IMG/VR virus record: IMGVR_UViG_2526164619_000005 | Location: 1-12,767 of that record | Reading direction: 5' to 3' (one strand) | From: a virus | Lineage: Duplodnaviria > Heunggongvirae > Uroviricota > Caudoviricetes | DNA: 12,767 nt | In this document: positions 11,560 through 12,767 of the stretch, piece by piece | How the letters are laid out: each line of letters begins with the position of its first letter | Numbering within the stretch: position 1 is the stretch's first letter | Notes under the pieces: model-generated | Databases searched by the model: none | Told to the model about the DNA's origin: nothing | The model's input: only the letters and a program-made list of their open reading frames with translations | Translations under genes and position numbers: made by a program

Positions 11560-12416
11560 TCATCCGTTCTGGCTGACTAAATCCTGTACTTCCCGAACCG
11601 TCTGCTCAAAACGTTCAGTCTCCAGCTCAACGCCAATTGCACGACGCCCGAGCGCCAGTGCCGCTTTCACTGTCGAACCCGACCCCATGAAAAAATCTGC
11701 AATCAGGTCACCCGGACGACTGCTAGCGCTGATTATCTGCTGCAGCATTTCTGCCGGTTTTTCGCACGGATGTTTCCCGGGATAGAACTGCACCGGTTTA
11801 TGCGTCCACACATCGGTATACGGCACCTGCACCGTCACGCCAAAATACCGCCGCAGATGTTTATATTCACTCAGCAGCTCCGCATACTGCCGGTTCAGTG
11901 AGGTATACGTATCCACCAGCTGGTGGTGGAGCTTTTCCAGTTCACCACGCCGATGCTTCTCTTCTGCCACCCGGGCAAACAGCGCCTGTAATTTCAGATA
12001 ATCGCTTTCATTCGGCAACTGCCACTGACTGGCACTGACTGGCACTGAACCAGTGCGACACCATGTTTTTCTTTCCTGTGGCATCTGCAATCTGTTTTGC
12101 CGTTATCCCCAGGGCAGCTCGCGCATCACGAAAGTAAGAAATCAGCGGGGCCATCACATGCTGTTTCAGTGCACTGCCCTTCGCCGCATACCCGGCATCT
12201 TTCGGACGATACGGCCCCTGATAATGTTCCGCGAACAGAATGCGCTCTGTGGCGGGGAAATACGCCCGCAGGCTTTCCTTGTTGCATCCGTTCCAGCGTC
12301 CGGACGGCTTCGCCCAGATAATATGGTTCAGCACACTGAAGCGTTCACGCATCATGATTTCGATATCAGATGCCAGGCGATGACCACAGAACAGGTAAAG
12401 ACTTCCGGCAGGTTTC
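11560..12416 (-). pseudogene. Phage DNA methyltransferase (N6-adenine/N4-cytosine MTase family), missing its 5' end and frameshifted
   Basis: Two overlapping ORFs (12008-12430 and 11560-12090) together read ...KPAGSLYLFCG...NHIIWAKP...ADFFMGSGSTVKAALALGRRAIGVELE (FxGxG S-adenosylmethionine-binding motif near the C-terminus). The N-terminal part that would hold the DPPY motif is replaced by IS1 at 12417. The frame is broken by a 10-bp tandem duplication at 12023-12042. Confidence 0.75.
12023..12042. repeat. 10-bp tandem duplication (cactgactgg x2, followed by a partial third cactg) inside the methyltransferase gene
   Basis: Seen directly. Removing one unit restores the single reading frame ...FSASQWQLPNESDYLK.... 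Confidence 0.85.
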
Positions 12417-12767
12417 GGTAATGCTGCCAACTTACTGATTTAGTGTATGATGGTGATTTTAAGGTGCTTGCGTGGCTTCCATTTCCATCAGATGTCCTTC
12501 CTGCTCCGCTACTGAAGGCGTGGTGCGTAACGGCAAAAGCACTGCCGGACATCAGCGCTATCTCTGCTCTCATTGCCGTAAAACATGGCAACTACAGTTC
12601 ACTTACACCGCCTCTCAGCCCGGTACGCACCAGAAAATCATTGATATGGCCATGAATGGCGTCGGATGTCGCGCCAGTGCACGCATTATGGGCGTTGGCC
12701 TCAACACGGTTTTACGTCACTTAAAAAACTCAGGCCGCAGTCGGTAACCTCGCGCATACAACCGGGC
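12417..12767 (+). mobile_element. IS1-family element, left end plus insA; runs off the window
   Basis: Terminal sequence GGTAATGCTGCCAACTTACTGATTTAGTGTATGATGGTG matches the IS1 inverted repeat from memory; followed by insA. Confidence 0.85.
12472..12747 (+). CDS. insA: IS1 InsA (91 aa), divergent IS1 variant
   Basis: [68 protein letters not shown]... is close to canonical InsA. The start codon here is GTG, not ATG. Confidence 0.8.

Follow-up and report, generated by a model that had tools for sequence, protein, structure and literature searches.

An M.EcoGII-type methyltransferase pseudogene in a Shigella flexneri K-315 prophage, interrupted by IS1 and shifted by a 10-bp tandem duplication

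The window, as the whole analysed stretch of 12,767 bp is called here, carries the 3′ four-fifths of a DNA methyltransferase gene from the late region of a lambdoid prophage, and this gene was probably disabled by two independent and apparently recent mutations in the course of neutral decay. A 768-bp IS1F element would have transposed into codons 71-74 with an 8-bp target duplication, by which the gene would be split, not truncated. Codons 1-73 with the DPPY motif remain beside the right end of IS1, preceded by the antiterminator Q gene and a 65-aa ORF; the halves would be 768 bp apart, and the repeated IS1 would have caused the assembly to break into separate contigs. The extra 10-bp unit would come from slipped-strand mispairing at an imperfect direct repeat already in place, and the resulting frame shift leads to the stop at 12008-12010. 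Both lesions would have accumulated neutrally, in either order. The finding is an ordinary pseudogene; both its family and the mechanisms behind it are known.

The methyltransferase gene and its two halves

The window equals contig AKMY01000008.1 in full (draft assembly GCA_000268165.1), with proteins deposited under Shigella flexneri K-315. Its last 351 bp lie inside IS1, and its left end (window 1-244) is IS sequence with a 100% match to IS3-family copies in the related sequences L010 and L011 described below; the contig is therefore bounded by repeats on either side. In K-315, the methyltransferase gene lies in the late region, between the antiterminator Q gene on its upstream side and a tRNA cluster on its downstream side (Table 1). 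The intact gene has the same position in an E. coli prophage and in a Stx phage. The tRNA genes have the anticodons CAT, TCG (Arg), and TCT (Arg), with CAT assigned to Met by ARAGORN and to Ile in the RefSeq annotation of a homolog. In Stx2 phages, the equivalent tRNA cluster is immediately upstream of stx2AB, and no toxin genes were found between the tRNAs and the esterase gene in the window (10782-11269).

Table 1. Features of the methyltransferase locus in the window (contig AKMY01000008.1)
Feature	Position	Strand	Details
Three tRNA genes	11270-11519		Next after the methyltransferase gene, then the DUF1737/SASA esterase gene
3′ part of the M.EcoGII-like beta-class N6-adenine DNA methyltransferase pseudogene	11560-12416	-	Third base of codon 71 through the stop
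Motif I (FMGSG; AdoMet-binding FxGxG)	11677-11691	-	From translation; out of frame with the upstream part
Premature TGA stop in the shifted frame	12008-12010	-	The 140-aa ORF ends in ...SASQCQSVAVAE before the stop
10-bp tandem array, 3.1 copies	12018-12048		TRF, period 10; extra copy 12023-12032 or 12033-12042; +1 frameshift
One copy of the 8-bp IS1 target-site duplication	12409-12416		CAGGTTTC on the + strand, GAAACCTG in gene sense
Left 351 bp of an IS1F-type IS1	12417-12767	+	Left inverted repeat from 12417; runs to the contig end
insA ORF	12472-12747		91 aa, within IS1

The part of the gene coded in the window has 95.8% DNA identity, with the 10-bp gap included, to intact 1059-bp genes annotated as DNA methyltransferases. 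The Pfam family N6_N4_Mtase (PF01555) is matched by two ORFs that overlap, one of 140 aa (12008-12430) and one of 176 aa (11560-12090). The 176-aa 3′ ORF scored 86.6 bits, above the curated cutoff of 26.7, and the 140-aa ORF alone scored 23.7 bits, below it; an intact homolog reached 154.3 bits over residues 29-340. The intact relatives from an E. coli O121 prophage and a Stx2a phage are 1059 bp and 352 aa long and have DPPY and FMGSG at residues 35 and 310, respectively. DPPY is outside the window but sits in a 74-aa 5′ fragment on the K-315 contig AKMY01000016.1, so the order of DPPY before FxGxG is kept. The coding sequence is interrupted by IS1 between codons 73 and 71/72 and is also changed by the +10-bp frameshift.

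Over 348 residues, the 352-aa product reconstructed from both halves shares about 93% identity with M.EcoGII (93.1% across 349 aligned positions), and for the repaired window part alone the figure is 92% against M.EcoGII residues 72-348; these identities are approximate, as the M.EcoGII reference is a machine reading, with a few errors, of Table S1 in PMC11551740. M.EcoGII and its near-twin M.EcoGI, both of the beta class, are encoded by prophages of E. coli O104:H4 C227-11 and methylate adenine regardless of the surrounding sequence (Murray et al. 2018, PMC5778455). Phage 1720a-02 is named as the carrier of a very similar enzyme (PMC5778455), and it was among the DNA matches to the window gene, with 93.4% identity. 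The K-315 gene resembles that of M.EcoGII in its beta-class order of DPPY, a central helix-turn-helix-like recognition domain, and FxGxG, and in its prophage setting, but differs in being a pseudogene, split by IS1 and frameshifted. According to these sequence comparisons, it is of the M.EcoGI/M.EcoGII type, and the putative non-specific activity is carried over from the characterised member. Its C-terminus represents the 352-aa ...DLVSQNG type, as opposed to the 349-aa ...DLIV type. Searches among solved structures recovered distant beta-class methyltransferases only and no M.EcoGII structure.

In a three-way alignment with intact homologs, the homology ends exactly at 12416/12417, where GGTAATGCTGCCAACTTACTGAT starts, and on the window side of IS1 the gene lacks its first 212 bp, or about 71 codons. 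The original prediction had placed the gene at 11560-12430; the junction at 12416/12417 agrees with the alignment, while the end at 12430 is a spurious TTG start of the ORF, 14 bp inside IS1. The sequence at 12417-12767 is 100% identical to positions 1-351 of 768-bp E. coli copies annotated as 'IS1-like element IS1F family transposase'.

An exact-pattern scan for the IS1 right end followed by 6-12 bases and the continuation of the gene matched one IMG/VR contig (L015). The order on L015 is DUF968, RusA, Q (229 aa), the 65-aa ORF, and then the methyltransferase from ATG through DPPY to CTGAAACCTG, directly followed by GGTAATGACTCC, which is the IS1 right end. Positions 14576-14583 of L015 are the same 8 bp as at the window junction, and the IS1 right repeat begins at 14584. 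The 74-aa product and its neighbours are exact matches to K-315 proteins EIQ24501.1, EIQ24499.1, and EIQ24497.1, and the contig with the 5′ fragment is AKMY01000016.1 (87,668 bp) of the same assembly as the window, ending 200 bp inside IS1. Methyltransferase codons 1-73, DPPY included, are retained on this contig. The 8-bp sequence GAAACCTG was found at both junctions, and the orientation of IS1 agrees across the contigs, its right end facing the 5′ piece and its left end the 3′ piece. When the 5′ piece is joined to the 3′ piece of the window, 1069 bp result; minus one 10-bp unit, this is exactly 1059 bp, a 352-aa ORF with no stop and 97.4% identity to the intact E. coli O121 protein. Because the gene is otherwise undamaged, its sequence suggests that both lesions are recent.

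Terminal inverted repeats beginning with GGTAATG and a short direct target duplication are as in a simple insertion of IS1F. The IS1 right end on AKMY01000016.1 matches at 99% over 204 bp, and the middle of the element is unassembled. The K-315 target duplication is 8 bp long, compared with the usual 9 bp of IS1; target duplications of 8 bp and 9 bp are both known for this element. As read from the two junctions, IS1 entered by simple insertion and duplicated 8 bp of its target, by which the gene was apparently split and its front end not removed. From the matching target duplication and orientation, we infer that both contigs are joined at present by one complete 768-bp IS1, unless a later IS1-IS1 recombination has parted the halves. 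The window's own IS1 junction was absent from IMG/VR and from 5,426 complete E. coli genomes, and the reciprocal junction had no match in the species-representative genomes in an exact-pattern scan. Proteins EIQ25827.1 and EIQ25826.1 of the window and EIQ24501.1 (74 aa) of the other contig are three pieces of one M.EcoGII-like pseudogene, and the two K-315 contigs can be joined through IS1; the value of this is mainly a correct annotation.

Related prophages, IS load, and selection

The same prophage remnant is found, with 99.4-99.5% identity, in two S. flexneri-type genomes: L010, which is the complete chromosome CP026766.1, and L011 (AMGB01000032.1). Neither of the K-315 lesions is present in them. 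Instead, a different IS1 in the opposite orientation abuts methyltransferase codon 15 (L010 7436-9221, L011 7437-9222), and its other side is joined to xis and int, so that codons 1-14 and the entire early region are lost. The 338 methyltransferase codons left in L010, DPPY included, are in frame with the IS1 end, and L011 has an additional TGG-to-TGA nonsense codon in the gene. The K-315 and the L010/L011 IS1 events are independent, because the K-315 5′ fragment keeps its native upstream genes and codons 1-14. The three closely related S. flexneri prophage copies have at least four different lesions in this 1-kb gene, and the 10-bp duplication recurs on another allele (L014, below); together this is mildly above expectation for lesions spread evenly across the compared stretch of roughly 12 kb. 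When proteins were searched with the N-terminal fragment, numerous further disrupted alleles were recovered, among them alleles with frameshifts, with a nonsense mutation, with an internal deletion, and with other IS junctions.

Such a collection of alleles could be produced by adaptive inactivation. When the control of late genes decays, for example by read-through transcription from IS elements, a leaky toxic methyltransferase would be selected against, and knock-outs would recur. Expression of M.EcoGII is reported as deleterious to the cell (PMC5778455), and near-identical prophages do carry independent lesions: IS1 at codon 73 and the duplication in K-315, IS1 at codon 15 in L010 and L011, and the nonsense codon in L011. 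Furthermore, the K-315 duplication is also the sole lesion of the allele on an unrelated contig (L014, below). On the other hand, about 2,580 of the 5,426 complete E. coli genomes hold at least 80% of the region, their closest copies are annotated as ordinary methyltransferase genes, and the gene is kept in phage genomes too. About five other structural differences were counted between K-315 and a relative in the surrounding roughly 11 kb, and the high density of lesions is thus general to the locus. Two lesions in one gene are also uninformative on selection, because the second hit is neutral once the first has killed the gene and cannot be selected there. Adaptive inactivation is considered unlikely for these reasons. 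Slightly lower still is the probability given to its broader form, in which an M.EcoGII-type methyltransferase would be a liability in decaying prophages, the independent knock-outs would reflect selection, and the 10-bp repeat would be a mutational hotspot that switches the gene off. The alleles give a wider hint that a toxic non-specific methyltransferase may be repeatedly knocked out, for the significance of which a population-scale count is needed.

Neutral accumulation of the lesions is the preferred reading, because the Q-dependent late operon would be silent in lysogens, the prophage was already defective, and the genomes of Shigella have undergone a massive IS expansion. M.EcoGII itself is unexpressed during normal growth of the lysogen and deleterious once expressed (PMC5778455), and silence of the K-315 copy in the lysogen is presumed from this literature. 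By the same analogy, the enzyme is not expected to contribute to the lysogen methylome. The original prediction took the two lesions as a sign that methylation is not needed, or is selected against, in this lysogen. The first part holds in a trivial sense only: a late gene of the M.EcoGII type is reported as silent in lysogens, and this copy lies in an evidently defective prophage full of IS elements. Selection against the gene is possible, as the enzyme is reported to be deleterious when expressed, but nothing in the data shows it. The methylation-sensitive sequencing proposed as a check for an unmethylated target motif is inapplicable, because the characterised member of the family is without sequence specificity.

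Four IS families are represented in the window: IS1, an IS3-family element, an IS110-family element, and a fragmented IS66-family element. In the 14.8 kb upstream on AKMY01000016.1, there are three more IS3-family copies and another IS1. With at least eight IS copies in about 27 kb, the prophage is evidently defective. The many IS copies, the truncated neighbours, and the relatives differing by IS gains and IS-adjacent deletions are like the IS-driven pseudogenisation and prophage decay known from Shigella; nothing distinctive sets the locus apart from such decay in general, and it is a typical example.

Several other genes of this prophage are affected as well. At L015 7365-8266, the other IS1 is directly upstream of a DUF1627 gene without its first ~48 profile positions, one more case of IS1 insertion or truncation in this prophage. 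At window 8148-9413 and 9393-10781, the sialate-esterase gene (DUF1737/SASA, nanS-p type) codes for 462 aa versus 617 aa in the E. coli O121 prophage, and it is interrupted by an IS3-family element of about 1.27 kb. Beside the IS3-family element, ~710 bp that encode the C-terminal DUF6645 part and are present in L010 are absent, and this looks like an IS-adjacent deletion. K-315 and L011 share an IS110-family element (window 2749-4266, transposase ORF 3014-4189) that the complete genome L010 lacks; its insertion point coincides exactly with the edge of the IS66-family element. The IS66-family transposase gene (window ~800-2750) is split into three ORFs of 188, 102, and 234 aa, versus a single 530-aa ORF in L010. 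In the Rz/lysis region, ~66 bp (window 5825-5890) could not be aligned with L010 or L011. The lysozyme ORF is 163 aa long in K-315 versus 177 aa in L010/L011, and the Rz ORF is 152 aa versus 132/127 aa.

The 10-bp repeat

Two perfect tandem copies of CACTGACTGG, at 12023-12032 and 12033-12042, are followed by a partial one. The aligned homologs other than L014 have 2.1 imperfect copies at this site (TCAGTGCCAG TCAGTGGCAG in gene sense), and because the relatives already hold these copies, the extra unit is a classic product of slippage. A perfect 10+10 tandem was met in 1 of 200 shuffles of the window. That the tandem repeat at 12023-12042 breaks the frame, as originally predicted, is borne out by its removal: with 10 bp deleted, the 140-aa and 176-aa ORFs become a single frame of 281 codons. 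The presence of two unrelated lesions in the gene is likewise confirmed by the alignment to intact homologs, by TRF, and by this repair of the frame, and both lesions are identical in a second assembly. TRF reported two further short tandem repeats in the window, at 372-404 and 6016-6043, with periods of 17 and 10.

The 10-bp duplication was found in none of the 5,426 complete E. coli genomes, and exact-pattern scans of species-representative genomes and of JGI metagenomes gave no matches. In IMG/VR, one contig with the same duplication was identified (L014, IMGVR_UViG_2645727991_000012). Its methyltransferase gene, at 5020-6079, is an otherwise intact 349-aa allele of the M.EcoGII type in which the duplication is the only lesion. 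The gene is set in an E. coli-type prophage with a different Q gene (273 aa). The two alleles differ 10-12 bp downstream of the duplication, with CTA in L014 and TTG in K-315, and also at codon 22. Because two haplotypes carry the duplication and the closest relatives of K-315 are without it, the unit was gained twice, or it was gained once and then precisely lost. The sequence around the repeat thereby suggests a slippage hotspot.

A reversible phase-variation switch, turning the gene on and off by gain and loss of one unit, would explain why the duplication is present on the TTG and CTA haplotypes and absent from the closest relatives of K-315, which requires two gains or a gain and a precise loss. 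It is very unlikely, as the array has only 2.1 or 3.1 imperfect copies, the longer allele is very rare (0 of 5,426 E. coli genomes and one IMG/VR contig), and the K-315 gene is dead anyway through IS1. Just these two repeat states, 2.1 and 3.1 copies, were observed, and the 3.1-copy state is on two haplotypes and very rare. Slippage at the imperfect repeat, as set out at the beginning, is the preferred origin of the extra unit.

Alternative arrangements at the IS1 junction and assembly accuracy

In the original prediction, IS1 had removed the 5′ end of the gene, and the part encoding DPPY was no longer in the genome. The window has nothing upstream of IS1, and L010 and L011 do show an IS1-joined deletion of codons 1-14 and of the early region up to xis/int. 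For K-315, a deletion of this kind is highly improbable and is directly contradicted by the 5′ fragment with DPPY and the matching duplication, which are present on AKMY01000016.1 and in the sister assembly GCA_049894805.1, where the equivalent 5′ piece is on JAAOUN010000262.1. The alignment proposed to confirm a missing N-terminus finds it absent on the window side of IS1 only; it is on the second contig, beside the IS1 right end. As the draft contig stops inside IS1, loss of the methyltransferase 5′ end could not be judged from the window, and the removal of a gene end by an IS should not be concluded where a draft contig stops inside the element.

Several candidates for the missing half or for its origin were rejected. 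With a target duplication of 9 bp assumed, the predicted product ending in ...LKPAVMTPTY was not in the protein database; the real duplication is 8 bp, giving a product that ends in ...LKPG before the stop, and this product is a non-representative member of protein cluster P0002. Protein P0011 (71 aa) ends in ...RVL right at the junction codon, but it represents an unrelated nonsense allele (AAA to TAA) from a metagenome. P0124, a cluster-mate of the spurious ORF spanning the junction, led to the S. flexneri 6603-63 contig L009, which has IS1 and IS3-family sequences in common with the window and no methyltransferase match. The P0068 contigs, with an IS1-to-codon-15 junction, are from other S. 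flexneri assemblies, not from K-315. An origin of the K-315 arrangement from that of L010/L011, by duplicative inversion of IS1 or by a second insertion, either of which would leave a 171-bp DPPY piece between two IS1 copies, is ruled out by the 5′ fragment with its native Q gene, 65-aa ORF, and intact codons 1-14.

A sequencing or assembly artefact as the source of the duplication is hardly credible even for a draft assembly, as a second assembly, with 4 substitutions and 1 indel elsewhere, has the duplication in identical form, and an unrelated IMG/VR contig has it too. On contig JAAOUN010000371.1 of this sister assembly, the IS1 junction and the duplication are the same as in the window, and all of the differences are in the tRNA region. 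Two of the substitutions are in tRNA-Arg(TCT) and two are just downstream of this gene, and the indel is a 1-bp deletion in the CAT tRNA.
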